Below, piece by piece: positions 34,679-62,213 of a stretch of DNA of 64,000 bases. How positions within the stretch are numbered: position 1 is the first letter of the stretch; each line of letters begins with the position of its first letter. The stretch is from a virus. Lineage: Duplodnaviria > Caudoviricetes. A program made the position numbers and the translations under genes. The notes under the pieces are model-generated. The model saw only the letters and a program-made list of their open reading frames with translations. It searched no databases and was not told the DNA's origin. The stretch covers positions 18,103 to 82,102 of the IMG/VR virus record IMGVR_UViG_3300011947_000001. One strand, given 5' to 3'.

Positions 34679-35485
34679 ATGAAATACGTTGATTTTTTAA
34701 TCGAAAAGAAAAAATACGATAATACCGATGAAATCGATATAGAAGAATTCAAAAAAATATACGCTAATCTTGATAACAAGAAGCCGTTCTACCGTGGAAT
34801 GAAAAGTGCCCCTAGTGATATCATGATTGTCGATGGTTCCAAACGAGAACGAAAATCATTGGACATCGGGAACCATTACACCGTTCTGTTTGATGAAATG
34901 AATAAAGATTTACCAAACCGAAAAAATGCAGTCTTTTTTTCTGGTAGTAACAACGTTTCATTCTTTGGCACAGTTTATTATGTGTTTCCATTCAACAATA
35001 CCAAGATCGTATGTGTTAATAAAAAGGATATGTGGGGAGTACCAGTTTATACTCCATTGAAATCTAAAAGAAAATCATTTATCGATATGCAAGATGTTAT
35101 CAATATATTTGACACGCTAAATATTCCTGATGATAGTTTATCTAGTATCGTCAGTGGAATCAAAAAGATTGTGAAAAATTTTGTTGATAAATATCCACAA
35201 AAAGTAGATCATGAAATGATTGAATTCATTGATGCAACTCATATCAATAAGTTATTACATGACGATAAATATGACGAAGTATTAGCTATTATGTTTGAAT
35301 ATAATGATGCTACTGTTGAAAGTCAGCTTAAACAAATGTTTAACTATGAAAAATTGAAGTTCAGTGTATATAATTCATCTAAAGATTTACCTGATAGCTA
35401 TCTACCCTATGAATATTGGATTGATGGTAAAGCACTGATTATCGATAAATCATTATTCGATTCCATTAGAAAAGACCTTGAATAA
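34679..35485 (+). CDS. CTS-tagged ART-like protein, paralog 1
   Basis: MKYVDFLIE; FYRGM...RKS...NHYT...P.R...FS...FG.VY.VFP...DMW...EYW.DG. Confidence 0.7.
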   Translation: MKYVDFLIEKKKYDNTDEIDIEEFKKIYANLDNKKPFYRGMKSAPSDIMIVDGSKRERKSLDIGNHYTVLFDEMNKDLPNRKNAVFFSGSNNVSFFGTVYYVFPFNNTKIVCVNKKDMWGVPVYTPLKSKRKSFIDMQDVINIFDTLNIPDDSLSSIVSGIKKIVKNFVDKYPQKVDHEMIEFIDATHINKLLHDDKYDEVLAIMFEYNDATVESQLKQMFNYEKLKFSVYNSSKDLPDSYLPYEYWIDGKALIIDKSLFDSIRKDLE

Positions 35486-35496
35486 GGTCTTTTCTT

Positions 35497-35883
35497 TTAT
35501 AATCCCATTTCTTTAGTAATTGGTATGCATATCGCCATGACCTGCTTACATTGCATTACTGTGAACATACCAATATGACAATCCTTAGCTTCGATTCTCA
35601 TTTTTTCTGACAGCATCTTATATGCTTCAGATCGTGACATTTTTCCAGATTTCCAAAGCTTATCAAATACATTATGCGCCAAAAGCTTATTCTTTCTTAG
35701 TTCCGCATTAGCCAATCGCCCTAATGGATTATCTGTATTTGGATGACAACCCACATACGCACCACATGGATTACAAAGATAGAAGTTTTTTTCATGTAGC
35801 TTTGATAAATGTGGATATATTACATCACCTTTCACCAAAGATGATTTCTGATCACAATAAGGACAGATAGGATGCTTAGACAT
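35497..35883 (-). CDS. Zinc-finger protein (DUF3268-like)
   Basis: CPYC...CNPCGAYVGCH...PLGRLANAELR...AH..FD.LW...CHIGMF; start moved to 35883. Confidence 0.85.
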   Translation of the reverse strand: MSKHPICPYCDQKSSLVKGDVIYPHLSKLHEKNFYLCNPCGAYVGCHPNTDNPLGRLANAELRKNKLLAHNVFDKLWKSGKMSRSEAYKMLSEKMRIEAKDCHIGMFTVMQCKQVMAICIPITKEMGL

Positions 35884-35947
35884 ATGATTTATAAAATATA
35901 AAATGGTATGATCGGAACCATACCATTTTTGTATACACAAAGTCAAA

Positions 35948-36928
35948 TTAGACTTTCTTTTTGATTTCTTCCCATTTGTCATAAGCCACGGCAACACATT
36001 TGTCGCCAAACCAACATTCAATATCTTCATGATCCGTGTGTTGATTCAAACGTTCAGTTTTGATCAATTCAAACCCTAAGTCATACGGATCATATACATC
36101 GCGAATAACTTTTTCTATTTCATCGCGGGAAAGTTCTTCATAACCAAACATTCTAACAAGAATAGCATATTTTGCCATATTACTATCTTCCAATGCATCA
36201 GCAAGGGCATCTGCATCATTAGCCAAATCAAATCCAAAATGTGTTTCTGTATCATTCACAATATCTTTGATTGCATCTTCATCAGCTTCATAATCTTCAT
36301 CATAATCATCATCATCTTCATCATGCGAATCGTGATATATATCTTCAGCATATTGCTTTATTTCCATAAGACCGTCGCGATGATCACGCACCAACACATT
36401 AAGAATATCATAATAATTAGAATCGCTGATATTCATGAATTCGAACACACGGTTCCATTGATTGATTTTTAGATCAAAATCACCAATTTCTATATCTGTA
36501 GTCCAAATATCTTCAGTACCAATATAACCAATATCAACACCTTTGAATGGCAAGATCACATACAATTTTCCGTAGTGTTCAGCCGTCTTTTTAGATGTCG
36601 AACAGATGATTGATTCAGAACGTAACGGGTAATTCTTATAATTAGCCCCAGTTTTGAGAATTTCATCAATGATCACGGTATAATAGTTAGTCGTATTCTT
36701 AGATGTACGTTTTCCCTTGGAACCATCAATGATATAGAAATCACCCTCATCTTCAAACCCACGATATAGATAGTTCTTGACATCACATTTATCTTTGATC
36801 AACTTGACGATTTCATCTTCATTGTCGATCTTCTTGCGATAATTTGTCATGTCCTTGAACATTGGATGCGGGTCTTTATCTTCTTTTTTATCTGATTCAA
36901 TGATCAGTTTGTATTGTTTAAATTTCAT
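35948..36928 (-). CDS. CTS-tagged ART-like protein, paralog 2 (acidic insert)
   Basis: MKFKQYKLIIES; LYRG, PLRSESIICST, HYG, DIW, ECWFG. Confidence 0.72.
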   Translation of the reverse strand: MKFKQYKLIIESDKKEDKDPHPMFKDMTNYRKKIDNEDEIVKLIKDKCDVKNYLYRGFEDEGDFYIIDGSKGKRTSKNTTNYYTVIIDEILKTGANYKNYPLRSESIICSTSKKTAEHYGKLYVILPFKGVDIGYIGTEDIWTTDIEIGDFDLKINQWNRVFEFMNISDSNYYDILNVLVRDHRDGLMEIKQYAEDIYHDSHDEDDDDYDEDYEADEDAIKDIVNDTETHFGFDLANDADALADALEDSNMAKYAILVRMFGYEELSRDEIEKVIRDVYDPYDLGFELIKTERLNQHTDHEDIECWFGDKCVAVAYDKWEEIKKKV

Positions 36929-36937
36929 TAGATAACC

Positions 36938-38065
36938 TTAGTAAAAAATAAAATATTCATAATCTTTATTATATTTGTCATTATGGATTTTAAAACCATC
37001 AATATCTAAATATTCAACAAACTCATCAAAATCAGCGTATTTCAGATATTCGATTATTGTGTCAGTTTCTTCAATATCTTCCAATTTAGAGTCGAGAAGT
37101 TCTTCAAAATCAGCCTTTCCACTTGACTTAACATGCTTTGCGAATAACTTAAAGAAATCTTCGGCCGAAATTTTATCTGCCAATGTTCCACCAATTTCAA
37201 TAATTTTCTTTTCTTTCAGATTGATTAATTCTGGTTCATAATCATCATCTGCATATTCCACATATTCATATGCATACTTATCAACATTGTAATGTTCATC
37301 CTTTTTAAACAAAATAATATGATCTTCATCAAGATTGTGTAATATATAATCTAACTTTTCATATTGTTCCGATTCAATCAGAAGGCACTTACCCCCAATC
37401 CAAACTTCACCCTCACTACCTTTATAGTCTTTACTTTGAATAAACTTGAACCCTAATTTATCTAAATCATACATTTCACGGATTTGTTGTTCAACGTTTT
37501 CTTGAGATTTTAAGTTGCCCCCAAAGTGATCTTTAAATTCGTCTTCAGACATACTTTCGATTTCTTCAGCTATATTACCAATACTACCTGAAGGTATACC
37601 AGCTTTTGAAAAAGTATCATTCATGGAACTCAAACTCTTACTACCAAGAGCTAATTTAACCCTTAAATCCCAAATATCTTCTGATGGTACAACCCCAATC
37701 CATGTATCGTCATATGGAATTACGTTATATACAGTCCCATATTTCTTTGCATAGTTTCTATCTGTTGATGCAATGATAGAAGCTGAACGCAATGGGTAAT
37801 CTTTGTTCTTTTCTGCAATTAATTCATCAAAAATTAAAGTATAATGATTCGATGTATTTTGTGACTTACGCTTGCCTTTCTGACCTTCAATGATATTGTA
37901 TGTTCGATGCTTACTTTTGGTTCCCCGATAAATATCAGCTTTGTTAGCCATACAATGTTTTTTGTATATTTCAACCATTTTAGCAAATGTGATATCTTCA
38001 TAATAAGCAGCATCATTATCAGCAGCTTCATTTAACACTAAAATTTTATAAGTATTGTATTTCAT
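36938..38065 (-). CDS. CTS-tagged ART-like protein, paralog 3 (C-terminal extension)
   Basis: MKYNTYKILVLNEA; IYRG, PLRSASIIAST, KYG, DIW, EVWIGGKC. Confidence 0.72.
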   Translation of the reverse strand: MKYNTYKILVLNEAADNDAAYYEDITFAKMVEIYKKHCMANKADIYRGTKSKHRTYNIIEGQKGKRKSQNTSNHYTLIFDELIAEKNKDYPLRSASIIASTDRNYAKKYGTVYNVIPYDDTWIGVVPSEDIWDLRVKLALGSKSLSSMNDTFSKAGIPSGSIGNIAEEIESMSEDEFKDHFGGNLKSQENVEQQIREMYDLDKLGFKFIQSKDYKGSEGEVWIGGKCLLIESEQYEKLDYILHNLDEDHIILFKKDEHYNVDKYAYEYVEYADDDYEPELINLKEKKIIEIGGTLADKISAEDFFKLFAKHVKSSGKADFEELLDSKLEDIEETDTIIEYLKYADFDEFVEYLDIDGFKIHNDKYNKDYEYFIFY

Positions 38066-38850
38066 TATTCGAATTTCCCATCTTTAAGCATTTTTTTATA
38101 TGTATCTAACTCAATAGCGACACATTTGCCACTAAACCAAACTTCGTGAGCACCACTAAGATCAAGTTCGTCGATTTTTCCAAACTGAAACTTCAAAACC
38201 TTAATAGGATCATATGCCACGGCTAGAACTTTTTCGACGACATCTTTCTTATCAGCCTTACTAAACGGCATTATTTTCAAATCTTGATATTCTTTTTTGA
38301 ATGCCTGATATAAATTCTTTTCTTCATAATCTGTTATATCACCTTCATCCTGTTCAAGAACTTTGGATAAATCCGAAACGATCTGTTTGAATGTTTCTGG
38401 TTCCTTTGAAAATCTATTCAAATATTCATTGAATGATCTTAGACGACCATGTTTATTTCCAAGGACAACGACGGCATCCCAAATATCATCTGATACACAC
38501 CTACCCATCTGAATACCATCATATGGAAAGATTGCATAAGTAGTACCATACATCAAAGCAGTTGCACTCCTAGTAGCACACATTAAAGACTTAGAACGCA
38601 ATGGTGCATTAATTTTCTTTAATTGTTCATCTATAATTAAAGTGTAATGATTAGTTGTATCAATTGATTTTCTTGTACGTTCTTCACCATGTAACGCAAG
38701 AAATTTACCAGATTTCTTGATGCCGCGATAAAGCGGCTTTTTCAAATCAATATTTTTACAATTCTTTTTAATCAGTTCAATTGCTTGTTCTTCGCTAATT
38801 TCCTTTTTGTAATCAGCATAGGCTTCGTTTATAAACTCAATAAACTTCAT
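38065..38850 (-). CDS. CTS-tagged ART-like protein, paralog 4
   Basis: MKFIEFINEA; LYRG, PLRSKSLMCAT, MYG, DIW, EVWFSGKC. Confidence 0.72.
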   Translation of the reverse strand: MKFIEFINEAYADYKKEISEEQAIELIKKNCKNIDLKKPLYRGIKKSGKFLALHGEERTRKSIDTTNHYTLIIDEQLKKINAPLRSKSLMCATRSATALMYGTTYAIFPYDGIQMGRCVSDDIWDAVVVLGNKHGRLRSFNEYLNRFSKEPETFKQIVSDLSKVLEQDEGDITDYEEKNLYQAFKKEYQDLKIMPFSKADKKDVVEKVLAVAYDPIKVLKFQFGKIDELDLSGAHEVWFSGKCVAIELDTYKKMLKDGKFE

Positions 38851-39683
38851 TCGAATTTCCCATTTCTTATCATCATTTTAAATTCTGTAATCTCAATAGC
38901 AACACATTTACCCCCAAACCAGAATTCATGTTCGGTATCAAGTTCATCGATTTCTAATTCCTTATACGTACCAAATTCAAATTCCAATGAATGTTCAGGA
39001 TCATAAGCCTGTTCTAGAACCCCTTCGACAACATCTTTCTTATCGACTTCATCCCATTCTTCATCATCACCCCATTCTTCCCACGTATCCTTGAATGCAG
39101 CATATATTTGACCAGCCCAACCCTTAGCGCCATCATTTGAATCATCATTAAGAAATTTTGTGATTGCATTTACAATATCGCTGTATGACTTTGGATCAGA
39201 CACAACATCATTCAAGTAATTGTTGATGTCATCAATCGTACCTCTTATATCACCCAATGCTATTCTCGTATGCCAAATATCAAAATGTGGACATTTGCCA
39301 ATTTCAGTATCATCGTATGGAAAAATTACGAACGCATCACCATAGTTATATGTATAAGATAAGTCATTGGTACAAATTAAAGATTTTCCACGAAATGGAA
39401 CCCTATTCCCATACTTCGAATTAAGAAAATGATCAATAATCAGGGTATAGTGATTGCTGGTATTTTGAGATTTTCGACTTCCTTTATCAGCCTGTATTGA
39501 ATAAAAATCTTCCCCATATTTGCGTTTCATACCACGGTATAATGGCTTTTTAATGTTTACATTCTTACAATGAGTCTTGATCAGTTTAATCGCTTCTTCT
39601 TCAGAAATAGTGTTTTTATAACTTGGTTCATCCAGAACTGGTTTCTTTCCGCTTGTTTCCAGTAGGAATGTTTTGTATTTCAT
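38847..39683 (-). CDS. CTS-tagged ART-like protein, paralog 5
   Basis: Start moved to MKYKTFLLET (39683); LYRG, PFRGKSLICTN, NYG, DIW, EFWFGGKC. Confidence 0.72.
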   Translation of the reverse strand: MKYKTFLLETSGKKPVLDEPSYKNTISEEEAIKLIKTHCKNVNIKKPLYRGMKRKYGEDFYSIQADKGSRKSQNTSNHYTLIIDHFLNSKYGNRVPFRGKSLICTNDLSYTYNYGDAFVIFPYDDTEIGKCPHFDIWHTRIALGDIRGTIDDINNYLNDVVSDPKSYSDIVNAITKFLNDDSNDGAKGWAGQIYAAFKDTWEEWGDDEEWDEVDKKDVVEGVLEQAYDPEHSLEFEFGTYKELEIDELDTEHEFWFGGKCVAIEITEFKMMIRNGKFE

Positions 39684-39804
39684 TATGTATATCTCAAATG
39701 ATTTGTATCTGATTATATTTAGAATATTTGGCGATTTGACTATTTTAATCATATTTGATACTATTTAATCATCAGATAGATCATTGGATTATCAGGAAAA
39801 CGTC

Positions 39805-40531: not shown

Positions 40532-41128
40532 ATGTCATTCGCTGACTTTTTAACTGAAGCCAAAGCAGCATTAAAACGTAAATACAAGATTCGCTTCAAC
40601 CTTGGTAAAGGCGAACACTTTATGTTTTGGCAAATCGAAAATCTAGAAACTGGTGAAAAAGTTTACTACGATCCTAAGAAATATTCACTTGCTTTAGAAA
40701 ACGCTAAACTACATAACCAAAAAGGCGGCGCTAACAAGATCAATACTGGGGAAACTACCAAAACTGTTGTTGCATGGACTGAAGCAGAAAAAGTAATCGT
40801 ACTTAAAGCAAAATCACTAAGCCCTGCTTTATATGGCACTCGTTTAGCCTACAATCCACACGTTCTTCCATTCTGGCATCGTACTGCTACTGAAGAAGAA
40901 ACTAAGTCTGGTAAAGCAACCAAGGTTCCAGAAAAAAATACCCGTGGCGATGATATTAAAAATGCTGGTGAAATGGTTGTTGATATCGACAAAACCAAAT
41001 ATACAAATGTTCTAACTGACGGTAGCAGCATGTATGTTCTTAAAGATGCTAAACTTAAAGAACTGGAAGATGATATTGAAAAAGACCAGACTAAACAACT
41101 TTATGAAGCAGTTGAAATCATTGAATAA
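40532..41128 (+). CDS. Putative internal head protein (CTS)
   Basis: MSFADFLTEA; CTAAATA upstream. Confidence 0.72.
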   Translation: MSFADFLTEAKAALKRKYKIRFNLGKGEHFMFWQIENLETGEKVYYDPKKYSLALENAKLHNQKGGANKINTGETTKTVVAWTEAEKVIVLKAKSLSPALYGTRLAYNPHVLPFWHRTATEEETKSGKATKVPEKNTRGDDIKNAGEMVVDIDKTKYTNVLTDGSSMYVLKDAKLKELEDDIEKDQTKQLYEAVEIIE

Positions 41129-44034: not shown

Positions 44035-44502
44035 ATGAAATTTAAAGACTATCTAGCTGAAGAAGAACTAAAACATAAGTTGTATACGAAAGAAGAAATT
44101 CGTGAACTTCGCGCTAAAAGTAAAGCTGATGCTGATAAACAATCAACTGAAGATAATGATCAAAAGGAAGATACAGAATCTTCAGCAAATAAAAATGCAG
44201 AAGATACCAGTGATAGTATCATTGGAGAAATAAAAGCGGCCTTAAAACAAGTTACTGAAGATGCAGACATAGTTACTGATGCTGATGTTTATATTGCTAA
44301 ACAAGATGCCAAAGAATATCTTGGATATTTTGTTTATAAAAAAGCTATTGGTGATGAACAAGATGATTTCTATGTAGGGAAATTCATATATCGTGTCACT
44401 GAACAAAAACTAGAAAGCTTAATTGATGATATTAAGGAATCATTCAAGAATCTGGCTGAAGCTGAAGAATACATCAAAAGCTATCAAGGCGTAAAAGCAT
44501 AA
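44035..44502 (+). CDS. Putative internal head protein (CTS), acidic
   Basis: MKFKDYLAEE; TATAAATA at 43983-43990. Confidence 0.72.
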   Translation: MKFKDYLAEEELKHKLYTKEEIRELRAKSKADADKQSTEDNDQKEDTESSANKNAEDTSDSIIGEIKAALKQVTEDADIVTDADVYIAKQDAKEYLGYFVYKKAIGDEQDDFYVGKFIYRVTEQKLESLIDDIKESFKNLAEAEEYIKSYQGVKA

Positions 44503-44503
44503 T

Positions 44504-46969: not shown

Positions 46970-47040
46970 CATTCTTTGTCAATCAATCCATCAGTGATTC
47001 CATGATCTATCACTTCTTCAATAAAATCTTTATATTTCAT
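46969..47040 (-). CDS. 23 aa micro-ORF consisting mostly of a CTS motif
   Basis: MKYKDFIEEVIDHGITDGLIDKE*; start overlaps the stop of paralog 6; followed by a terminator. Confidence 0.45.
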   Translation of the reverse strand: MKYKDFIEEVIDHGITDGLIDKE

Positions 47041-47779
47041 TTTTAAGTTTTTCCATAACGTCTTTTCTGAACTGATCCAATAATTTAAAGTTTATAACCA
47101 GACATTTACCTCCTATCCAAACCTCATTAGTGTGGTTCGTATCATCAGTTTTTGTAGTCACTACATCAAACTTTTTCAAGGTAAATACACCTTCAAGAAA
47201 TTTTCCGATTTCCTCTTTAGATTTATCATTCAATTCATTATAAAAATGGTCATCTTTTTGATAATTGTGTTTATATAATAAATCAACCAATTCTTCGAAT
47301 GAATCAACATGATCAACATCAATGTACATATTAAGTATCGTAGATACAATATCAACACTGTATTTCTTATATGAATTCATTTCCAGAATATCTTCATCAT
47401 CACACCTCATGATGGTAACTCCATCAAATGGAAAAATCGCATAATGATTAGGGCCATACTTCTTCATAATATCAGTCCCTTTAGAACCGATAGCAATGAT
47501 AGACTTACTACGCAATGGATAATTTAACTTTTGGGTTGTAATCTGATGATCGATCACGATATTATGATAGTTATAATTTGAAATAGATTTCCGGTTTCCT
47601 TTTTGACCTTCTAATATAGAAGCATCAAATTTTGCGCGGGCTGCACGACAATAATGATTATTAACGTCCATATCTTTACAATTTTTGATAAATATATCAA
47701 CCGCATCATCATAAGATATGGATGTTCTATAGCTGGATTCTTCAGTGTTTTCGAGTATTAGAAAATCTTGATATTTCAT
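47030..47779 (-). CDS. CTS-tagged ART-like protein, paralog 6
   Basis: MKYQDFLILE; YCRAA (variant), PLRSKSIIAIG, KYG, EVWIGGKC; CTTAAATA upstream. Confidence 0.7.
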   Translation of the reverse strand: MKYQDFLILENTEESSYRTSISYDDAVDIFIKNCKDMDVNNHYCRAARAKFDASILEGQKGNRKSISNYNYHNIVIDHQITTQKLNYPLRSKSIIAIGSKGTDIMKKYGPNHYAIFPFDGVTIMRCDDEDILEMNSYKKYSVDIVSTILNMYIDVDHVDSFEELVDLLYKHNYQKDDHFYNELNDKSKEEIGKFLEGVFTLKKFDVVTTKTDDTNHTNEVWIGGKCLVINFKLLDQFRKDVMEKLKNEI

Positions 47780-47903
47780 TGGCTTTTATTGGTTACTTTT
47801 TTCTATTTAAGAGAAAACCTTACTCTTTAGCCACATCTACAACAACACGATACCGTCTATAAAAACGCCAGATAATCAATAATGAGAATCTGGCGATACT
47901 AAA

Positions 47904-48258: not shown

Positions 48259-48334
48259 TGGTGGCGACATATCAGATTCGAACTGATCCAACACGATTTT
48301 AGAGATCGCTGCACTACCACTATGCTAATGTCCC
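48259..48334 (-). tRNA. tRNA with CUA anticodon (amber suppressor type)
   Basis: GGGACATTAGCATAGTGGTAGTGCAGCGATCTCTAAAATCGTGTTGGATCAGTTCGAATCTGATATGTCGCCACCA; anticodon loop CT-CTA-AA, TTCGAAT loop, encoded CCA; one bulged G in the acceptor stem. Confidence 0.85.
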
Positions 48335-48509: not shown

Positions 48510-49655
48510 TTAATTATTTTTACCATCTATTTTATAAAATGCGTATGTGACATCAATATCACCCACATATTTAATCTTAATACCAGAATAATTGAAATAT
48601 GAACTTAACATTGTATTTCCCATCCTACGTAGAAAATAAGCCACGCTTGCATTAGTAGAATCCATCTTATCGGTAAACGAATCATCAGCAATATATTCTA
48701 GGTATTCTTCAACATCATTTGGCTTAACATATTTCTTCAAAGTTGTGCCAAAGAATTCATCACGATCGACCTTATCATAAATATCCATATTCAAATTTAT
48801 TGTATTTGAAAATTTCTTATTCACAATAACAGCTTCCCCACCATCCATATAATCATCTAATGTGTAATAATCATTATCATTCATCTTATACATTAGTTCA
48901 TAATCACCGCTGATGATTTCATCATAATATTTGACCAATGTATCATGTAAGGATTCTTTAACTACTAGGCACTTCCCAGCAATCCACATTTCGTTGAATG
49001 TATTGGCGCTGAATTTATCTTGTGTAAGGAATTTAAATCCTAGATGATCCAGATCGAACGCTTTTTTGATCCCAGCAAGTATATCGCCATCCTGTTTACC
49101 AAAAACAGATTCGAATCTATTCGCGTACTTAGAAGCGTCAAGCGATTTTAAACTACTGGCTATTTTGGAAATGGATTCATCGCCAATCTTAAATTTATTG
49201 AAATAATCATTCAAATCCTTGAATGTATAATCCCCAATTAGATCGACATACCAGATATCTTTTTCTGGAACTAAACCAATAACCACATCATCAAACGGAA
49301 TGATATTGTATACATCACCATATCGTTTAGCATAATCTTTACTATTCGAACAGATGATCGATTTACTACGTAACGGATATTTTGAGTCAGTTGATTTGAT
49401 CACTTCATCCATGATCACAGTATAATGATTGGTTGTATTTTCTGATTTACGGCCACCTTTCTGACCTTCTACAATACCAAAAACACTTTTATTTTTACCG
49501 CGCATACCACGATATATTGGCTTATTTACATTATATTTTTTGCAGTTCGACTTCAATATATTGATTGCAGTCTTGATATCGATCTTTTGATAATAATTTG
49601 ATTCGCCTGTTTCATCAGTCGCTTCGACCAACATCTTAAAATTTTTGTATTTCAT
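48510..49655 (-). CDS. CTS-tagged ART-like protein, paralog 7 (C-terminal extension)
   Basis: MKYKNFKMLVEA; IYRGM, PLRSKSIICSN, RYG, DIW, EMWIAGKC; CTTAAATA upstream. Confidence 0.72.
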   Translation of the reverse strand: MKYKNFKMLVEATDETGESNYYQKIDIKTAINILKSNCKKYNVNKPIYRGMRGKNKSVFGIVEGQKGGRKSENTTNHYTVIMDEVIKSTDSKYPLRSKSIICSNSKDYAKRYGDVYNIIPFDDVVIGLVPEKDIWYVDLIGDYTFKDLNDYFNKFKIGDESISKIASSLKSLDASKYANRFESVFGKQDGDILAGIKKAFDLDHLGFKFLTQDKFSANTFNEMWIAGKCLVVKESLHDTLVKYYDEIISGDYELMYKMNDNDYYTLDDYMDGGEAVIVNKKFSNTINLNMDIYDKVDRDEFFGTTLKKYVKPNDVEEYLEYIADDSFTDKMDSTNASVAYFLRRMGNTMLSSYFNYSGIKIKYVGDIDVTYAFYKIDGKNN

Positions 49656-49816
49656 TGCTTTATTATACCAATAGTTTACAATTATTTAAGTTTCAACAGG
49701 CGACATATCATTTGTATTTTTTAAATTTTTTACAATATAAACACTCCATACCTTTTGACTGATATGTATTACCAACTCCAAATTCGTGCACGAATTTATG
49801 CTTACAGAATAGTTGT

Positions 49817-51092: not shown

Positions 51093-51170
51093 TGGTGGGC
51101 CTTGTGGGATTCGAACCCACGATCTCAACGGTTATGAGCCGTGTGTTTTTGACCGCTAAACTAAAGGCCC
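51093..51170 (-). tRNA. tRNA-Ile2/Met (CAU)
   Basis: GGGCCTTTAG...CGG-CTCATAA-CCG...GTTCGAATC...GGCCCACCA; overall pattern resembles Ile2. Confidence 0.88.
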
Positions 51171-51186
51171 ATAAATCAACAACTTA

Positions 51187-51261
51187 TGGCACATCCCCAA
51201 GGATTTGAACCCTGACAACCGACTTTGGAGGACGGTGTGCTGCCAATTACACCAAGGATGC
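51187..51261 (-). tRNA. tRNA-Trp (CCA)
   Basis: GCATCCT/GGGATGT acceptor, anticodon loop CT-CCA-AA, TTCAAAT, encoded CCA. Confidence 0.88.
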
Positions 51262-51266
51262 ATTTG

Positions 51267-51343
51267 TGGTGCGCCTAACTGGATTCGAACCAGTGACCAT
51301 CCGCTTAGAAGGCGGATACTCTATCCAACTGAGCTACAGACGC
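51267..51343 (-). tRNA. tRNA-Arg (UCU)
   Basis: GCGTCTGTAGCTCAGTTGGATAGAG...TCCGC-CTTCTAA-GCGGA...GTTCGAATCC...GCGCACCA. Confidence 0.93.
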
Positions 51344-52669: not shown

Positions 52670-53623
52670 TTAGACTTCTTTTACACTCACAATATCAATT
52701 TTCTTTGGATCGAATATGACATAATTATTAGGCCATGTATATCCACTTTCATCACCGTCTTCGGGAGAAGTAACGATCAATGCATCATGACCTGATTCAA
52801 TTGCAGCTTTGATTGCATTTTCAGTTCCACGGTCATGATCATACCGTTCAAAGAAAGCTGGATTTTTAATATCCAATTTCACTTTATATACATAATCCCC
52901 ATAATCTTCAGCATCATTCGGCTCATCGGTAAACCATATTCCATTACTAACCACTTTCTTTTTATCATCAAATGAATCAAATTTGTGGTCGCTACCATGA
53001 TAATAGAATGGTGATTTCCAATCAGAATGAGATTCGTTAATATTATTTGACGAATTTGAGAATGATCCCTTGTTGTTGATGGATTTAATTTGATTAGGAT
53101 TCCAAATAGCCCAATTCTTTTCTGCAAACCCACTATGTGATGAATAATCTGCAACGGCGAAACCATCAGCACCTTTAGATTCAGCCTTATCTTTTACTTC
53201 AATTTCATCAGTTGATTTAAAGGTTCTACCTTTAGAATATGGCTTTCTGATATTCAGAAATACTTCATATACACCACCACCTTTAGCTCTACCAAAAATT
53301 TCAGCACCTTTCTTATCTTCAGAAAAGAACATCAAATTATTAATATCTGCATTTGGTTTGAATGTATTAAATCCGTACTTATCAGTACCATGATAGCAGA
53401 TTAATGGTTCCCCGTTTTTATCAATAATTTTGGAAGCATTCTTTTTATCATTTTCCCAATCACCAAACCAATTTTTAAATGCTTTAGTTCTAACCATTAA
53501 CCATTGTTTTTCTGGAAGGTTACTTGGTTTACCGTTTGGTGCTTTTAGGTAGTCTGGTGTACCTTTTAGTTCTTTTAACAAATCTGTGATTTCAGATTCC
53601 ATTAAGAATTCTTCGAATTTCAT
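52670..53623 (-). CDS. CTS-tagged protein with two ART-PolyVal-like domains
   Basis: MKFEEFLMES; LKAPNGKPSNL...VRTKAFKNWFGDW; YHGT..F..F...FFS...A..FG...V.L.I.KP and a second YHGS...GIWFT...A.DYG...V.LDI.NP domain. Confidence 0.8.
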   Translation of the reverse strand: MKFEEFLMESEITDLLKELKGTPDYLKAPNGKPSNLPEKQWLMVRTKAFKNWFGDWENDKKNASKIIDKNGEPLICYHGTDKYGFNTFKPNADINNLMFFSEDKKGAEIFGRAKGGGVYEVFLNIRKPYSKGRTFKSTDEIEVKDKAESKGADGFAVADYSSHSGFAEKNWAIWNPNQIKSINNKGSFSNSSNNINESHSDWKSPFYYHGSDHKFDSFDDKKKVVSNGIWFTDEPNDAEDYGDYVYKVKLDIKNPAFFERYDHDRGTENAIKAAIESGHDALIVTSPEDGDESGYTWPNNYVIFDPKKIDIVSVKEV

Positions 53624-54552
53624 TTTAATACCGTCTTGTTTACAATTTCTACTTGATCATTATCAAATACAGTCAACTCCCTGATGGAACCATTTTCCAA
53701 AAGTATGATTGCATCATAACCCCTTTTTTTAACTGATTCAGCATCAATCTTATTAACTGGTAGTTCATTCAACACCAGTGGGTTATCTATCATCAACTTA
53801 ACTTCATATATATAGATATCGCCATTTACACCAGTCTTTTTCATATGCATCTTTGGATAAACTTCGGCACGTTTCTTATTTGGAGTGAAATAAATTCCAT
53901 TACCCAACATTCCACTACCGACTTTAAATTTATCAAATTCTGTAACCGATCCGTGATATGCAATCATATGGTTATATTCAGTATTTTCATGAATATGATT
54001 AGATGTCACTTTAAATGTACCAAGGTTATCAATTGATTTTACCTGATTAGATTTAAAAACCGCCAATGTACCTTTCGCTTCATCACGAATATTGATTGAA
54101 TCAAACCCATCAGCGATTACTTTTTGTTGATACTTCTTACTTTCCGCATCTCCAAAATAGATAGGACGCTTACCTTTGATATTTCGGCAATTCAGGAATA
54201 CCTTATAAAGCTTCGAATCACCTTTCACTGTACCTCTACGTGCACCTTCTTCAGTCTTAGCAAAGAATAACAAACCCCGCCATGATGCTTTAAATTCAGT
54301 AAATTCAGCATCACTCACATGATAACAGATCAATGGTTCACCGTTTTCATCCAAAACCTTTGATGCATTATTTTTGTCATTTTCCCAATCACCAAACCAA
54401 TTCTTAAACGATTTAGTTCTAACCATCAACCACTGTTTTTCTGGAAGGTTAGACTTCTTCCCATTTGGCGCTTTTAGGTAATCCCCCGTATCTTTTAATT
54501 GCTTTAATAAATCGGTAATTTCCGATTCTACTAAGAATTCTTCAAATTTCAT
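53620..54552 (-). CDS. CTS-tagged protein with two ART-PolyVal-like domains (tandem paralog)
   Basis: MKFEEFLVES; near-identical N-terminal ~80 aa; YHVS...FFA and YHGS...GIYFT...NP...GYDAII...E domains. Confidence 0.8.
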   Translation of the reverse strand: MKFEEFLVESEITDLLKQLKDTGDYLKAPNGKKSNLPEKQWLMVRTKSFKNWFGDWENDKNNASKVLDENGEPLICYHVSDAEFTEFKASWRGLLFFAKTEEGARRGTVKGDSKLYKVFLNCRNIKGKRPIYFGDAESKKYQQKVIADGFDSINIRDEAKGTLAVFKSNQVKSIDNLGTFKVTSNHIHENTEYNHMIAYHGSVTEFDKFKVGSGMLGNGIYFTPNKKRAEVYPKMHMKKTGVNGDIYIYEVKLMIDNPLVLNELPVNKIDAESVKKRGYDAIILLENGSIRELTVFDNDQVEIVNKTVLK

Positions 54553-54693
54553 CATTTTACTCCAATATAGAAAAATGAATGTTTATGTTCATTCGAATAC
54601 AGATTTATCGAATTCCTTTTTCCAATTAGATTTATCAAATTCTTTGAACTCACCTTTTTCTTTCTTCTTATAATGATCATTCCAAACTTTTGA

Positions 54694-56213: not shown

Positions 56214-56217
56214 TATA

Positions 56218-57111: not shown

Positions 57112-57463
57112 CTCTAGTCACTCCTAAATTCAAAGTAATACTCCCTTGAACGATGCGGAAGCGATCGCCATTACTGAATTCTAATTCAATATCATATACA
57201 GCTTTATCAAAATTAAACTTTTCGGTTTCAGCAGCAGAAATTTTAATGGTTATAATTCCAGAAACTTCATTTATTGTAATTTTATTATTAGTAGTAGATG
57301 CATCGCATATAACACTATCTGATTTAACATCAGATCGAATTTGCATATCAACTTTACAATTTGAATCTAATATATAGATGTCATTATTATTCCATTTGAA
57401 ATTAGCAATGAATGTCGAACCCTGATAAATAACAAACTGCTTTATTATTGGCTTTACAACCAT
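57104..57463 (-). CDS. Small beta-sandwich virion protein (baseplate/fibre-attachment type)
   Basis: IYQGSTF...MQIR...AVYDIEL...RIVQG.ITL..GVTR pattern; ATTAAATA upstream. Confidence 0.7.
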   Translation of the reverse strand: MVVKPIIKQFVIYQGSTFIANFKWNNNDIYILDSNCKVDMQIRSDVKSDSVICDASTTNNKITINEVSGIITIKISAAETEKFNFDKAVYDIELEFSNGDRFRIVQGSITLNLGVTRVV

Positions 57464-57657
57464 TATCAATCCCCTATAGTTTTAATTATATTTAATAGGA
57501 TTTGCTTTTTTGCAGACAAAAAAATACCGTGTCTATTGGGGGTAGCACGGTATATAAACTTTAAATCCTACAACACATTTATATTAATAATGTTGTATAT
57601 ACATAGTACATATAATTAGGAGTAGTGTCAAACATTATAAGTATAATTATTAACCAA

Positions 57658-57960
57658 TCAGAATTCAAAAATTTCAACGTTTTCCTTTTCAATTCGGTCG
57701 CAATTATAAAAGTTTGATCCAAATTTTGGGTAACTATCAATCATTTCTTGCCGCATTCTATATTGAGATGCCCCACGTATATCACGCAATGTTTTTTCCA
57801 TTGGGTGTCCACATAAATCATCATCATCACTATGATAGTGACTCAAAATTGAATTCACATTTCCAACCATATCATCCACATTATATTGTTCTGCTAATAC
57901 CATGAAGCATGATGTCATCACATTACCCATGTAACATTTAACTAAAAATACTTTTTTCAT
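57658..57960 (-). CDS. Hypothetical early protein
   Basis: 100 aa ORF behind a strong promoter. Confidence 0.65.
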   Translation of the reverse strand: MKKVFLVKCYMGNVMTSCFMVLAEQYNVDDMVGNVNSILSHYHSDDDDLCGHPMEKTLRDIRGASQYRMRQEMIDSYPKFGSNFYNCDRIEKENVEIFEF

Positions 57961-57967
57961 TTTTTAC

Positions 57968-58081
57968 TTATCCACAAGTCGATTTAGAAATTCTACTATG
58001 TATATACAAATATGTCAAATCTAAAACTTATAAACAGCTTTATCCACATTTATTAACAATTGTGGATATATTTGTGGATAA
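57968..58081. promoter_or_regulatory. DnaA-box cluster (candidate origin or DnaA titration site)
   Basis: Perfect TTATCCACA at 57968-57976 and 58040-58048, TGTGGATAA at 58073-58081; near matches at 58061-58069, 58028-58036, 58050-58058. Confidence 0.7.
57990..58018 (-). promoter_or_regulatory. Sigma70-type early promoter (leftward)
   Basis: TTGACA-17 nt-TAGAAT; spacer contains TGTATATACA. Confidence 0.8.
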
Positions 58082-58259
58082 GTCTGATCATTTAACGAAC
58101 ATTTAAAAATATTAATTATTTTATAAAACAATAAGTTATGTTTGTACACACACGAATCTTACAAAAAACGCCCAAATCGGTTTGAATTTGACTTAAATAA
58201 GTTTTATAACTTCAAATTGCATAGATCATATATGTTTGTACAAATATGTCTATAGCCTT

Positions 58260-58665
58260 AGTCACATTGGGCGCTGAATAATAGGTGTGATGATATTGGT
58301 TGATAACACCAATGCAATCAAAAAACAAAGTGTCCGCACTGTCTGGCCTGACAACGGACGACGTGATGACCTAGAAATAGGTAAACGGTAATCAACCACT
58401 TTGAAGGGAAGGCTTTGTTTTGAATTATTGTCAATGACTTTATTTCATAAATGAAGTACAGCTTTTTTTAATCATGATTGCACAGGGTTAAAATAAAGCC
58501 GCCATACCAACCGTACCTTCAACATACTATTTCAGTATGACTTGGTAATGAGTGATAACAACCGTGGGGTTGTGAACTGTAATTATCATTTGGTGCATAG
58601 CAAGCCGAAATAAGTTGCTATGGGATATACACTCTACGGCAAAGAGTGTTAGCGAAAGCTAAAGA
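58260..58665 (+). ncRNA. Candidate structured non-coding RNA
   Basis: No ORF of 60 aa or more; GC-richer than flanks; serial hairpins including GAAA-capped ones at 58369-58382 and 58649-58662; strand is a guess from GNRA loops. Confidence 0.35.
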
Positions 58666-59001
58666 TTTAAATTTGTAACAAGCGAACTGTATTTCGTGAT
58701 GTAGAATTTGTTGGGTCTAACGTGTATTTGAATGATAGTGACAATACAGTTTAAGTCATTATCAAGTATTCCGATGGTGAGTTGTTTGAGCTACTTATTT
58801 TTATATAGATCCTTCTTTACCATTTGATTTATTTTCTTCTTTATTTGAATATTTAACTTGTTTTATAGTTTTATATTTAATTTTACTTAATGATATAGAT
58901 ATATAATCCCTTATCATTGAGAAGAAAAAGAAGATTATAAATCAAGAATACTAAAATCACGGATATAAAGGCCACAATTCACCTCAAGAAAACCTGCAAA
59001 T

Positions 59002-59030
59002 TTGACAAATCATATTTGTTTTGATAAGAT
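59002..59030 (+). promoter_or_regulatory. Sigma70-type early promoter (rightward)
   Basis: TTGACA-17 nt-TAAGAT with extended -10 TG. Confidence 0.8.
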
Positions 59031-59062
59031 ACTTATATAATGAATATGACAGGTATTTAAAT

Positions 59063-59344
59063 ATGAAAGAATCAGAAGCGTTACGATTAAAAGACTTTGA
59101 AGCAAAATTGGTTGCTGGGGAAGCTGTGCGTTCTGTACGTCGTATTATTGAGTTTCCACACGAAGCTATTCATCGTACACAATATTCAATCTGGAATGGG
59201 AAGAAGTGGTGTCGAATTAAAAACGCCGACTTACCAAAGTGGTCTACTTCATTTGAAGAACATAATAACTATTGTTTTGATTACGATAGAACGATTATTC
59301 GAGTGAAAGGAAAAAGAAACTATAGTGGTTCTAGAATTGGATAA
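59063..59344 (+). CDS. Hypothetical early protein
   Basis: Start moved to ATG 59063, downstream of the promoter and AGGT SD. Confidence 0.65.
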   Translation: MKESEALRLKDFEAKLVAGEAVRSVRRIIEFPHEAIHRTQYSIWNGKKWCRIKNADLPKWSTSFEEHNNYCFDYDRTIIRVKGKRNYSGSRIG

Positions 59345-59359
59345 ATTTATAAAATACTT

Positions 59360-59382
59360 AAAGCGCCTTCTGGCGCTTTTTT
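59360..59382 (+). terminator. Intrinsic terminator
   Basis: AAAGCGCC-TTCT-GGCGCTTTTTT. Confidence 0.75.
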
Positions 59383-59502
59383 CGTCTGGTATGATCCCTA
59401 AAATCAGATAGTTGATTGTATACACACGATAAGTTAAATTTTGATTATCATATATGTTTAAACTTAAATATAATAACAATTTTGAGAAATGGGATGATTT
59501 AA

Positions 59503-59952
59503 ATGTTCAATACTCCACTGGGAAAGAAACTATATGAAAATGTAATGGGGCTTGGTTATCATATCATGACTGGCAAAGCAGCATTATATTCTAACGTTGT
59601 TGCGATGGTTGAAGACTTCATTGAGAAAGATAACGGTAATATATATCTTTCAAAAAGCATGACGATGGCTGACATTGAAAAACTTATTCTCTATATCAAT
59701 GATGGTACTTCTTATCGATTCGATATGAAATCTGCTGCGACAATTAAACGTGGTGAAATCATGAAAGTTATGAATGAAAATAATATAAAATTTGATGTGT
59801 TTGATCCATTTAAACCAAAAGATATCAAATTAAATGAATGTACAAATCAATTTGGTTTTTGGACTGATAACCACTATGACAAGATCACATTTGTAATTAA
59901 TAGCGGAATAAAAGGTAAATCGGTATTACATATTGATGTGATAATTAAATAG
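59503..59952 (+). CDS. Hypothetical protein (TAG-terminated)
   Basis: 149 aa ORF. Confidence 0.65.
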   Translation: MFNTPLGKKLYENVMGLGYHIMTGKAALYSNVVAMVEDFIEKDNGNIYLSKSMTMADIEKLILYINDGTSYRFDMKSAATIKRGEIMKVMNENNIKFDVFDPFKPKDIKLNECTNQFGFWTDNHYDKITFVINSGIKGKSVLHIDVIIK

Positions 59953-59981
59953 TATAAAGAAATATAAAAATAGGTTAATAG

Positions 59982-60731
59982 ATGAATTTTAAACAATTCC
60001 TGAATGAAGCGAAGTCAGATGGAAAATACAAAACTAACATATCATTAAGCGATGCAGTTGAAATATTCAAAAGTAACTGTCGCGATATGGATATTGATTC
60101 ACCATTCTGGCGGGGTATGCGTTCAACTAATAAAGCATTAACTTTAGAAGGTCAGCGTTCAACCCGCGATTCTATTTCATCAATTAAATTTCATAATATA
60201 TTCATCGATGAATTAATTGAAGAATCAGGTAAACACTACCCATTACGGTCGGCTTCTATTATTGCTATTGGTAATGAAGGCGAAAGTGATGCTAGTGGGT
60301 TTGGGGATGAAGTATACGCCATATATCCATTTGATGGGGTAGTTATTGGGAAGTGTGATGATTCAGATATACTTCGCCAAAGACTCAAATATAATCATGG
60401 GGATTCATATATAATTAGTGATTTGAATTATGAACTATCCCAAATGGGGAATGTCGGTCGTCGTACAACACCTGATATGGAAACTGTTGCAGATGCCATA
60501 TATAAACGTTTGAAAAAAGGTGTGATTGATGACGAGTTTGAAAAAGTATTTGGTAAGTTAGATTTGGATGTAGACGGGATTATTGCTGAACTGAAGAAAT
60601 ATTATAGCTTAGATAATTTTGATTTCATCACTTCTAAAAAATCGAATGATCATGGTGATGAAATTTGGATCGGCGGCCAATGTCTGGCAATTCATGTTGA
60701 TCACTTAGATGAATTTAAAGAAATGTTCTAA
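59982..60731 (+). CDS. CTS-tagged ART-like protein, paralog 8
   Basis: MNFKQFLNEA; FWRGM, PLRSASIIAIG, GFG, EIWIGGQC; ATTAAATA upstream. Confidence 0.7.
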   Translation: MNFKQFLNEAKSDGKYKTNISLSDAVEIFKSNCRDMDIDSPFWRGMRSTNKALTLEGQRSTRDSISSIKFHNIFIDELIEESGKHYPLRSASIIAIGNEGESDASGFGDEVYAIYPFDGVVIGKCDDSDILRQRLKYNHGDSYIISDLNYELSQMGNVGRRTTPDMETVADAIYKRLKKGVIDDEFEKVFGKLDLDVDGIIAELKKYYSLDNFDFITSKKSNDHGDEIWIGGQCLAIHVDHLDEFKEMF

Positions 60732-60733
60732 TG

Positions 60734-60758
60734 AAATGATGCGAAAGCATCATTTTTT
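60734..60758 (+). terminator. Intrinsic terminator
   Basis: AAATGATGC-GAAA-GCATCATTTTTT. Confidence 0.75.
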
Positions 60759-60800
60759 AGTTGTTAAATAAGATAACATATTTGATAAGGTATATTTGAG

Positions 60801-61412
60801 ATGGCAAAGTTAATTACAGTTGAAGGTTTAGATTGTGCAGGTAAATCAAGTGTGATTATCCCGTACCTACGTTCTAAATTAGGTGATGAAAATTATCATT
60901 ATGTTGCTGATATGAAAACTGGAAATATTTCTCAAAAAATTCGCGAAATCTTCATGTCGCCAGAATGTGTAACTGAAGATACAGACTGGCGTACAATCGC
61001 TTATTTGGCTTCAGCGGCCCGTTCTGATCTGGTAGTACAACATATCATACCAGCGTTAAAAGCTGGTAAAAACGTGATCTGTGATCGCTATGTGGATACA
61101 TCATTTGTATACAATATGGATAGCCATAAACAGCCAGTAGATACGATCCTGAATCTTTCTGTTCATCTAGTATACCCACATACAATTATCTTTGCATACT
61201 GTTCATATGAAGAAATGTCATTGCGTAAAACGCTACGTGATGGCGGTGATAATGATCAATGGGATTTATCCAGCAAAGAAGCATACGATAGTAAATTGGA
61301 ACGCTACCGCGAACAGTTTGCAAGCCGTTCATGTAATGTGATTGAAATCGACACATCTGGTTCCCTAGATGAAACTTATGCAAAATTAGATTTAGTTATT
61401 AATCAACTATAA
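60801..61412 (+). CDS. tmk: Thymidylate (dTMP) kinase
   Basis: ITVEGLDCAGKSS P-loop, A.R, ICDRY. Confidence 0.9.
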   Translation: MAKLITVEGLDCAGKSSVIIPYLRSKLGDENYHYVADMKTGNISQKIREIFMSPECVTEDTDWRTIAYLASAARSDLVVQHIIPALKAGKNVICDRYVDTSFVYNMDSHKQPVDTILNLSVHLVYPHTIIFAYCSYEEMSLRKTLRDGGDNDQWDLSSKEAYDSKLERYREQFASRSCNVIEIDTSGSLDETYAKLDLVINQL

Positions 61413-61481
61413 TTATTGGTGCGTGATGGTGTCATATCGTCACGCATTCTAAATAATATAATATTGGCTAAATAAAACAAA

Positions 61482-62213
61482 ATGAAATACAAAAATTACC
61501 TCACAGAAATCACTAAGATCGAACGTCAAATTTTCGATTCAGTAAATGATTACCTTGCGGATTATTCCGAAACTAAACTGAAGGATGGTTTATTTCGGGG
61601 ATCATCCAGTTTAAGCACTACTTCAGTAATTGTTAAACAATCTGATAGTGTTAGAACACCAAGGAGGGCATCACTGTTTATAACTGCATTGGTTGATGGT
61701 TGTTTAAAAGAAATCAATCCAAAAGCACCATCTAGACGACGTTGTACCATTTGTTCAAATGATGAAGATTGGGCTAAAGATTTCGGTACTGCATTATATA
61801 GAGTATTTCCAAAAGATGGTACTTTATTGGCATACATCAAGCATTATGATTTTAACGCATCAGCAAGTATCAATGATCTAGATGAAGATGGACAATTGGC
61901 CCTACAATATAAAAAAACTGATGAATTTAAATCATTGGCTGATATTGAAAAATTGATATTGTCTAAATTTGATCGATTTGAAGATTTTTATAAAGAAGCT
62001 TATATATTAAAGGGTTTGCGTGGCGATATTAAAAGTAATGCTGAAAATATATTAAAACGGTTAGATGTTCATTTAGCTAATAATGCTTCAGAATTACCGA
62101 AGACAAATTGTGAAGTATGGTTCGATGGCGACTGCTTAATAACCAACAATAAATATTTTGATGAATTCGAAACTTATGTTGAGTTAACCATTGAAGAAAA
62201 GAAAAAAAGATAA
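61482..62213 (+). CDS. CTS-tagged ART-like protein, paralog 9 (most divergent)
   Basis: MKYKNYLTE; LFRG, PSR...ICSN, DFG, VFP.DG, EVWFDGDC; CTAAATA upstream. Confidence 0.68.
   Translation: MKYKNYLTEITKIERQIFDSVNDYLADYSETKLKDGLFRGSSSLSTTSVIVKQSDSVRTPRRASLFITALVDGCLKEINPKAPSRRRCTICSNDEDWAKDFGTALYRVFPKDGTLLAYIKHYDFNASASINDLDEDGQLALQYKKTDEFKSLADIEKLILSKFDRFEDFYKEAYILKGLRGDIKSNAENILKRLDVHLANNASELPKTNCEVWFDGDCLITNNKYFDEFETYVELTIEEKKKR

Follow-up and report, generated by a model that had tools for sequence, protein, structure and literature searches.

The stretch of viral DNA analyzed here, a window of 64,000 nucleotides that spans bases 18103-82102 of an IMG/VR virus record (82,102 bp; 33% G+C), carries nine related genes between positions 34679 and 62213. 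A sequence-only reading of this DNA had described them as a nine-member family of capsid-targeted proteins with an ADP-ribosyltransferase (ART)-like core of the R-S-E type. All nine open reading frames (ORFs) exist at the coordinates claimed for them, and their products are indeed paralogs, alignable over their whole length and sharing the ordered motifs that had been listed. Ten residues are invariant in the nine-copy alignment (R39, R58, D72, P79, R81, G97, P104, D117, E245, and W247, numbered as in the 34679 protein), and a hidden Markov model (HMM) built from the nine recovers each copy with an E-value of 1e-70 to 1e-93. The same HMM detects two extra copies upstream of the window, at contig positions 2056-2811 (+) and 2808-3521 (+), and no further match on the window or the rest of the contig; the count of nine holds for the window, whereas the contig as a whole encodes at least 11 members.

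Paralog 1 (34679..35485, +) encodes 268 amino acids, begins with the N-terminal leader MKYVDFLIE, and has the most divergent P-x-R-S-x-S block of the set (HMM E-value of 5e-75). It is followed by a tandem block of four paralogs on the minus strand. Paralog 2 (35948..36928, -; 326 amino acids; leader MKFKQYKLIIE), the final family gene of this block, contains the longest variable insert, which is acidic and spans 161 residues. Paralog 3 (36938..38065, -; 375 amino acids; leader MKYNTYKILVLNE) carries a C-terminal extension of about 125 residues, and paralog 4 (38065..38850, -; 261 amino acids; leader MKFIEFINE) has metagenomic relatives at 77% and 43-51% identity. Paralog 5 (38847..39683, -) comprises 278 amino acids when counted from the leader start MKYKTFLLE. 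Its mechanically called ORF extends to 39752, and the additional 23-residue stretch has a counterpart in no other member of the alignment; the most likely start is at 39683 rather than at the ATG located upstream, at 39752. The block is closed by a gene for a DUF3268 zinc-finger-domain protein (35497-36030, -; E-value of 1e-39), whose mechanical call shares about 80 nt with the end of paralog 2. Paralog 6 (47030..47779, -; 249 amino acids; leader MKYQDFLILE) has C-R-A as its first-strand motif, and paralog 7 (48510..49655, -; 381 amino acids; leader MKYKNFKMLVE) bears a C-terminal extension of about 130 residues. On the plus strand, paralog 8 (59982..60731, +; 249 amino acids; leader MNFKQFLNE) and paralog 9 (61482..62213, +; 243 amino acids; leader MKYKNYLTE) complete the set, the latter being divergent and placed near the split of two subfamilies.

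The source record is a fragment of a much larger genome: CheckV estimates its completeness at about 22%, and the genome is therefore expected to measure several hundred kilobases. The contig encodes replication and nucleotide metabolism proteins of the T4 type, including NrdA/B, both topoisomerase II subunits, DNA ligase, a Dda-like helicase, RNase H, and thymidylate kinase.

The motifs quoted in the sequence-only reading are maintained well beyond this contig. We examined an alignment of 122 diverse relatives, which show about 20-48% identity to the 59982 protein used as reference and for residue numbering (R44 to E227) from here on. R62, R89, P116, D129, E227, and W229 are invariant, despite a shared overall identity of about 25-30%, R44 (121/122) and G45 (119/122) are nearly so, and S92 is present in 108/122. 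Conservation of at least 90% is also observed at E9, C33, R44, G45, S64, N69, D76, P87, I94, and G108. When the key residues are tabulated for the 11 contig copies together with 13 domains of Agrobacterium phage Atu_ph07, a carrier of the same family, R44, G45, R62, R89, G108, P116, and E227 are present in all 24. D129 is found in every domain except Atu57 and Atu63C of Atu_ph07, both of which have an alignment gap at this position. S92 gives way to another residue in two contig copies and is kept in the other tabulated domains. The suggestion that some paralogs might be inactive is not borne out, because the invariant polar set is found in all copies examined and none of them looks inactive.

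Variation is concentrated elsewhere. The segment between D-I-W and the final E-x-W motif, previously noted as hypervariable, has the highest entropy of the protein, with a mean of 2.96 bits (the two core blocks average 2.15 and 1.52 bits), and it measures 85-161 amino acids. The C-terminal extensions reported for paralogs 3 and 7 are likewise present, at about 125-130 amino acids; they are weakly similar to each other (E-value of 5e-4), and the two proteins are sisters in the tree with a support of 0.94. Extension-bearing forms of 369-382 amino acids also occur among other metagenomic members. Structural comparison of the extension gives only weak matches to EF-hand-like helical proteins, with Z-scores of 3-4. 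For the variable insert, a SWIB/MDM2-like match obtained with the first model described below (Z 3.9) was dropped, as the second model did not reproduce it. A search for fused or longer forms of the family turned up none.

Two structures were predicted from different alignments. The AlphaFold2 model of the 59982 protein (model 1), built on the 122-sequence alignment, reaches a predicted local distance difference test score (pLDDT) of 91.5 and a predicted template modeling score (pTM) of 0.87, and that of the 48510 protein (model 2) reaches a pLDDT of 84.7. When 48,161 representative chains are searched exhaustively with VIA-align, the list for model 1 consists almost entirely of members of the ART superfamily, which account for about 35 of the top 50 chains. 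It is headed by BC2332 (PDB 2aua, Z 6.2), Arr (Z 5.9), and diphtheria toxin (Z 5.2), and continues with AvrPphF ORF2, TreX, KptA/Tpt1, toxins of the exotoxin A/cholix type, tankyrases, many PARPs, Scabin, CNFy, TreTu, pertussis toxin, DarT, CARDS toxin, CopC/OspC3, and the anti-CRISPR 6kyf. The latter entry, whose title reads only "anti-CRISPR protein", we take to be AcrIF11, an ART anti-CRISPR. A second look at model 1 gives 2aua at Z 7.3, with a root-mean-square deviation of 3.1 Å over 126 aligned residues, and adds CteC, DarT1, and SidE. The search with model 2 repeats the ART list, again with 2aua as the best match (Z 6.2-6.3 across exhaustive searches), and adds DarTG and the NAD-bound Salmonella effector 7dn9. 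BC2332 is classified in the ADP-ribosylation superfamily of SCOP as d.166.1.6 (PMC3000352), and its family, DUF2441, is a member of the Pfam ART clan (PMC7955679). ESM Atlas (own model) also places DUF2441 as the nearest named cluster and lists an ART-PolyVal cluster. The ART-like fold put forward in the sequence-only reading thus finds support in two independent models, and we hold with high confidence that the family adopts a fold of the ART superfamily, as these predictions indicate. The argument depends on the nearly exclusive ART composition of two independent lists and not on any single score.

The positions of the conserved residues on the model are consistent with this assignment. The [YWVF]-R-G motif forms strand 42-46, the location of the aromatic-[H/R]-G element on strand 1 of ARTs, while Y-P-L-R-S-K-S-I-I-C-[AST]-[TN] runs into strand 93-96, followed by a helix with A..[YF]G. 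In known ARTs, the strand-2/helix element supplies a Tyr in H-Y-E enzymes and S-T-S in R-S-E enzymes. E227, present in 122/122 relatives, is the first residue of strand 227-230, which comes immediately after the variable helical insert (residues 145-207 in the model), the same place where ARTs carry the ARTT/target-recognition loop and the catalytic Glu. The proposal of an aromatic-R-G on the first core strand and an invariant Glu opening a late strand, as in ARTs, therefore agrees with the model, on which an R...S...E register is topologically reasonable. Membership in the R-S-E clade itself is a different matter and is not established. The Arg is present on strand 1, and strand 93-96 is followed by a Ser/Thr-rich C-[AST]-[TN]; however, the late motif, E-x-W, lacks a second acidic or amide residue. 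In the model 1 list, the R-S-E enzymes (Scabin, pertussis toxin, TreX, CARDS) rank below BC2332 and H-Y-E-type enzymes. The fold component of the earlier claim stands, whereas its clade component is not supported, given that the nearest structures are BC2332/DUF2441 and H-Y-E-type proteins (Arr, diphtheria toxin, PARPs, Tpt1) and that the ExE/QxE motif is missing.

All nine window copies begin with the leader M-[KN]-[FY]-x-x-[FY]-[L]-x-E, three of them with an insertion of 2-4 residues, and the two upstream copies carry it as well. Among the 122 relatives, E9 is kept in 118 and L7 in 108. In both models, the leader is predicted with low confidence and lies apart from the fold. Its residues are conserved while its codons vary, including those for Leu and Glu. 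Other phages carry their own versions, always ending in hydrophobic-x-E: M[KR]WxQLxE in Atu_ph07, MTFKAFLQE in RsoM2USA, and MKLKNLLSE in LR756508. The pattern matches that of the capsid-targeting sequence (CTS) of the T4 internal protein IPIII, in agreement with the capsid-targeting type that had been proposed. For IPIII, the first 10 residues suffice for prohead targeting, to which positions 4 and 7 contribute, positions 8 and 10 are important for processing, and gp21 cuts after Glu; in T4 relatives, such leaders occur on diverse proteins (PMC9026906).

On this contig, the leader is not restricted to the family. A search with M-x(1-2)-[FYW]-x-x-[FYW]-x(0-2)-[LIVM]-x-E finds 19 starts, corresponding to 18 of the 114 greedily called genes, where 0.07 would be expected from internal positions. 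As a feature of all nine paralogs the leader stands as described; as a feature specific to them it does not. The 7-8 leader genes outside the family encode two ART-PolyVal proteins, one Zeta_toxin/AAA_33 kinase-like protein, and five proteins without a Pfam match. The two ART-PolyVal genes lie in tandem (52670..54555, -), encode 317 and 310-311 amino acids with the leader MKFEEFL[MV]E, and show two PF18760 stretches each, with E-values of 3e-26 and 3e-23, above the Pfam cut-off. By this domain assignment, the pair is a second, recognizable ART family among the putative tagged cargo. The P-loop kinase-like gene (27389..28120, +; leader MNFQEFLLTE) matches PF06414 above cut-off (E-value of 7.5e-10). 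Of the remaining genes, that at 40532..41128 (+; MSFADFLTE) has a sub-threshold Pfam match only, and that at 44035..44502 (+; MKFKDYLAE) has no Pfam match above cut-off. Three further leader genes are located upstream of the window, at contig positions 3523-4200 (+), 4795-5919 (-), and 5939-6529 (-), and encode proteins of 225, 374, and 196 amino acids for which Pfam gave no credible family. The best-supported reading is that the tagged cargo is larger than the family and includes the ART-PolyVal proteins and the Zeta-like kinase.

The motif [CT]TAAATA was found upstream of 10/18 leader genes and of 17/96 other genes (p 0.0014), and may be a variant late promoter. It is located 25-45 nt upstream of many leader genes, for example at 34640-34660, 39700-39720, 47800-47815, 49680-49700, and 59945-59965. 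No copy of the canonical T4 late promoter, TATAAATA, lies upstream of the genes, and only the shorter form is enriched.

Direct evidence of location comes from Atu_ph07, in which gp53-gp63 form a tandem array of family members and gp408 is the twelfth (HMM E-values of 1e-14 to 1e-60). Published electrospray ionization tandem mass spectrometry of the virion, purified by polyethylene glycol precipitation, detected 131/714 proteins (PMC6102473, Table S5). All 12 family members are in that table, with 3-31 unique peptides and 12-47% coverage, and a hypergeometric test gives P of about 1e-9 for 12/12 among 131/714. The claim that these are virion proteins is accordingly upheld for the homologs in one relative. 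The mass spectrometry available for RsoM2USA virions covers 10 bands only and is uninformative for the family. Two members have composite architectures: gp54 contains two family domains, and in gp53, a 778-residue virion protein (L002 1485-3821, -), a Zeta_toxin kinase domain follows the family domain, a fusion that hints that the family domain and Zeta-type kinases may act together. Just upstream of the twelfth member, gp407 (L003 3756-4784, +) is a 39.7-kDa virion protein detected by 17 peptides; it has an internal leader-like start of the MKLINLLE type, and its annotated start may be too far upstream. Peptidase_S77 (gp21) is above cut-off in Atu_ph07 (also PMC6102473, Table S3), RsoM2USA, and LR756508, and is not found on our 82-kb fragment, which represents about 22% of its genome. 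Considering these data, we judge it very likely that the family proteins are packaged in the virion.

A different view of the N-terminus would be that it serves as a translation-initiation or regulatory element, or is a recombination scar, and that the proteins are cytoplasmic late in infection. The first codons are indeed alike at the DNA level in several copies (ATGAAATACAAA...), the strict Atu_ph07 leader pattern is confined to family members and could reflect family heritage, and the virion data come from a relative and not from the phage itself. However, the Leu and Glu codons vary while the residues are kept, the leader occurs on unrelated folds of the same contig, and it differs between phages with hydrophobic-x-E always retained. 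Together with the 12/12 Atu_ph07 homologs found in virions and the gp21-type proteases of this phage group, these observations make such a view very improbable.

Packaging would also be compatible with non-catalytic internal head proteins built on an ART-derived fold, with DNA-packing, scaffold-like, or "inner body"-like roles, whose paralog expansion would meet the demands of a very large capsid for structure or dosage. The abundance of the proteins in virions and the number of paralogs fit this possibility, phiKZ and SPN3US also have paralogous, protease-processed head-internal proteins (PMC9026906), and the activity of the family is a prediction. Yet an invariant polar set of three Arg, Asp, and Glu, plus Ser, Asn, and Trp, at 25-30% identity is an active-site signature, the neighbors with the same tag are recognizable enzymes (a Zeta-like kinase and ART-PolyVal proteins), and a kinase domain is fused to one of the family members. 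We regard a purely structural role as improbable, although less so than a leader without a targeting function, and the modeled fold with its conserved residues suggests that the proteins are likely to be catalytically active enzymes.

Our preferred interpretation is that the genes form an unnamed family of ART-fold proteins that would be packaged in the head by means of a CTS-like leader, be ejected into the host, and act there as enzymes, with ADP-ribosyl transfer as the most likely chemistry; to this statement as a whole we assign a probability of roughly 55%. The 9-13 residue leader M-K-[FY]-x-x-[FY]-L-x-E would dock the protein onto the prohead core, as the T4 CTS does, and a T4 gp21-type prohead protease would cut after the leader Glu. 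The mature protein of about 27-43 kDa would then stay with the DNA in the head and be ejected into the host at infection. An active site could be formed by the invariant R44, R62, R89, S92, D129, and E227, and the most likely chemistry would be the transfer of ADP-ribose from nicotinamide adenine dinucleotide (NAD+) to a host protein or nucleic acid. The hypervariable helical insert before the strand with the catalytic Glu, plus the C-terminal extensions, may give each paralog its own target. For genuine NAD+-dependent ADP-ribosyl transfer, considered separately and on the predicted structures, we see slightly less than an even chance.

Several results weigh against this interpretation. With Foldseek, the comparison that the sequence-only reading had recommended for the predicted structures, no PDB entry matches either model at an E-value of 0.001 or less; the weak top rows for model 1 are BC2332 (2aua) and the ART-like effectors OspC3 and CopC. 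Z-scores of 6-7 fall in the range that the alignment tool calls common for unrelated models. Sequence-based methods (Pfam, PDB profile, hhalign) link the family to no ART family: a profile search of PDB sequences returned coiled-coil noise in the variable insert only, hhalign against DUF2441 (full, N-core, C-core, and insert-less; local and global) was non-significant with E-values of 0.1-0.9, and hhalign against an ART-PolyVal alignment gave a probability of 1.2%, the non-significant pairing setting the family [YW]-R-G on Y-H-G-T. The virion evidence concerns one relative, Atu_ph07, and not the phage itself; the published Atu_ph07 data give coverage and not N-termini, so that leader cleavage is a prediction; and no head genes are present on our contig, which covers about 22% of the genome. 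Regarding the active site, the R/S/E register is judged from strand positions and not from pocket geometry, no ExE/QxE motif was found in the 122-sequence alignment, and three invariant Arg plus an invariant Asp, of which R62, R89, and D129 are additional, do not correspond to the classical ART constellation.

These last points bear on whether the packaged enzymes might catalyze something other than protein ADP-ribosylation. Candidate reactions include the hydrolysis or depletion of NAD+, ADP-ribosylation of DNA or RNA in the manner of DarT, Tpt1-like 2'-phosphotransfer, OspC3-like ADP-riboxanation, and an NAD+-free reaction. The structural neighbors of the family comprise Tpt1/KptA, DarT, Arr, OspC3/CopC, and the functionally uncharacterized BC2332, which would suit such chemistries, as would the lack of an ExE/QxE motif. 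The three invariant Arg recall sites that bind phosphate or nucleic acid, of which the Arg-His-Arg-Arg tetrad of Tpt1 is an example. The Pfam ART clan itself holds non-ART activities, for example RES and RolB_RolC (PMC7955679), a further point against our interpretation. On the other hand, the aromatic-R-G first strand and the late-strand Glu fit a conventional transferase too, and the data do not discriminate between the two; we consider a chemistry of this other kind unlikely, although less so than a non-catalytic role.

Turning to the extent of the family, a profile search of 1.84 billion representatives yields 4,444 clusters (50% identity) at an E-value of 1e-3 or less and 354 at 1e-30 or less. 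In GenBank, the phages with protein-level relatives number only five, namely Agrobacterium phage Atu_ph07, Ralstonia phage RsoM2USA, Salicola phage SCTP-2, and the uncultured LR756508 and LR756502; their records measure 344-642 kb. The genes are annotated as "hypothetical" throughout the isolate genomes that carry them. The sequence-only reading recognized no named family, and this proves accurate: Pfam searches with the nine proteins (E-value of 1 or less) and the 122 relatives (E-value of 10 or less) returned no ART-clan or other credible family, the PHROGs matches (12810 and 11975) are both of unknown function, and a BFVD structure search gave uncharacterized huge-phage proteins only. The family is not mentioned in the searched text of surveys on phage NAD+/ART systems and jumbo phages (PMC9503650, PMC7824862).

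Two old subfamilies can be distinguished by secondary positions, S64/N69/P87/W229 versus P64/A87/F94/M229. In a FastTree phylogeny, copies cluster mainly by phage within the subfamilies; the nine window copies form one group, and Atu_ph07 contributes two clades with supports of 0.905 and 0.99. Because copies group by phage, the tree indicates independent lineage-specific expansions, a pattern that composition-driven attraction could also produce. From these sequence comparisons, the family appears to have undergone separate expansions in different lineages of very large T4-related phages.

A broader proposal, which we put forward tentatively and hold to be somewhat doubtful, is that the family constitutes a very large unrecognized branch of ARTs, with more than 4,000 clusters at 50% identity, serving as a principal ejected enzymatic cargo of the largest T4-related phages in a diversifying arsenal of 5-12 copies per lineage, with the leader as a general packaging code. 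If this is true, the copies would have multiplied independently in each phage lineage and would differ mainly in the target-recognition insert, and the arsenal would be aimed at host targets or defenses. The injected proteome, consisting of ARTs, kinases, and uncharacterized proteins and amounting to about 16% of the genes of the fragment, would then be predictable from DNA alone. If the proteins are active, R-R-R-S-D-E would be a new catalytic constellation for the ART superfamily, a dozen abundant virion proteins of Atu_ph07-like phages would gain a function, and a testable system would be available for the pre-loading of multiple effectors by huge phages. With the leader, packaged proteins could be predicted simply, and cargo could be directed into such capsids in the way that the CTS allows in T4.

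Other features of the region complete its description. A DUF7275 protein (32649-33506, -; E-value of 2e-52, with a weak DUF7277 match) is encoded just upstream of the family region. A tRNA with the amber-reading anticodon CUA, assigned as tRNA-Pyl by ARAGORN, lies at 48263-48334 (-) between two paralogs, and 3 kb from it is a cluster of tRNA-Met, tRNA-Trp, and tRNA-Arg(TCT) at 51093-51343 (-). The family ORFs are intact under translation table 11. Between the two topoisomerase II subunit genes there is a homing-endonuclease-like ORF (PHROG 3339; 15587-16609, -).

Among known proteins, the best structural match to both models is BC2332/DUF2441 (PF10386, PDB 2aua), whose function is unknown. DUF2441 has Y-H on strand 1, where the family has [YW]-R-G. 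Unlike DUF2441, the family possesses a helical insert of 85-161 amino acids, a leader of the capsid-targeting type, and a huge-phage virion context; the sampled DUF2441 genes are single-copy and occur in 17/401 Bacilli genomes. An alignment of 15 DUF2441 proteins from Bacilli genomes shows the motifs Y-H (strand 1), Y-P-S-R-L-S-C-L-Y-A, L-L-P-K-E, Y-W, and E-L-L-I-N-G. The insert-less local comparison by hhalign, although non-significant, pairs P-x-R-S with P-S-R-L-S, P-Y-D with P-K-E, D-I-W with (E)-Y-W, and E-x-W-I-G-G with E-L-L-I-N-G, giving the order Y-P-x-R-x-x-S-h-h-[AC], A..[YW], P-[YK]-[DE], [DE]-[IY]-W, and E-x-h-I-x-G (h, hydrophobic). This collinearity of sequence motifs is only suggestive. 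The Pfam gathering cut-off of DUF2441 (25 bits) is not reached by any protein of the contig or by the 122 members, the P-x-R-S block of the divergent LR756508 member giving a sub-threshold 15.6 bits. As no score exceeds the cut-off, DUF2441 is the nearest neighbor only, and the family is not filed under it. ART-PolyVal (PF18760), with its His-type first strand (C-Y-H-G-T), is likewise a separate family; in the searched text of PMC9503650, these ART-clan domains are predicted to travel with phage DNA.

The functional model for the family is T4 Alt. This ART-fold protein enters the prohead core, has its N-terminus trimmed by gp21, is kept in the head, and is ejected (PMC9026906). It shares no detectable sequence similarity with the family, and it is a single large R-S-E-type protein, whereas the family comprises 9-12 paralogs per phage of 27-43 kDa with E-x-W in place of ExE/QxE. 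Alt is a mono-ADP-ribosyltransferase, and the activity of the family is predicted. IPI, IPII, and IPIII, which are T4 internal proteins, share with the family a leader of about 10 residues, in which aromatic/hydrophobic positions target the protein and a hydrophobic-x-E end directs gp21 cleavage. The leader here is presumably one residue shorter in register than the T4 sequence. In T4, as on this contig, the leader is found on otherwise unrelated, fast-evolving proteins, but the T4 internal proteins are small, basic, and without enzyme folds, unlike the family, and the leader marks far more genes here (about 16% of those on the fragment) than in T4. In phiKZ and SPN3US, a protease related to gp21 cuts multi-paralog head-internal proteins after Glu, and these are delivered into the cell (PMC9026906, PMC7411985); these sets belong to other phage lineages, are not known as ART-fold enzymes, and are likened to the family by description and not by homology. 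The packaging of phage ARTs has been predicted broadly for myoviruses in the searched text of PMC9503650, and with T4 Alt the concept of head-packaged phage ARTs is already established. The family itself is unnamed and, on the basis of its predicted fold, represents a new ART-clan family within this known theme.

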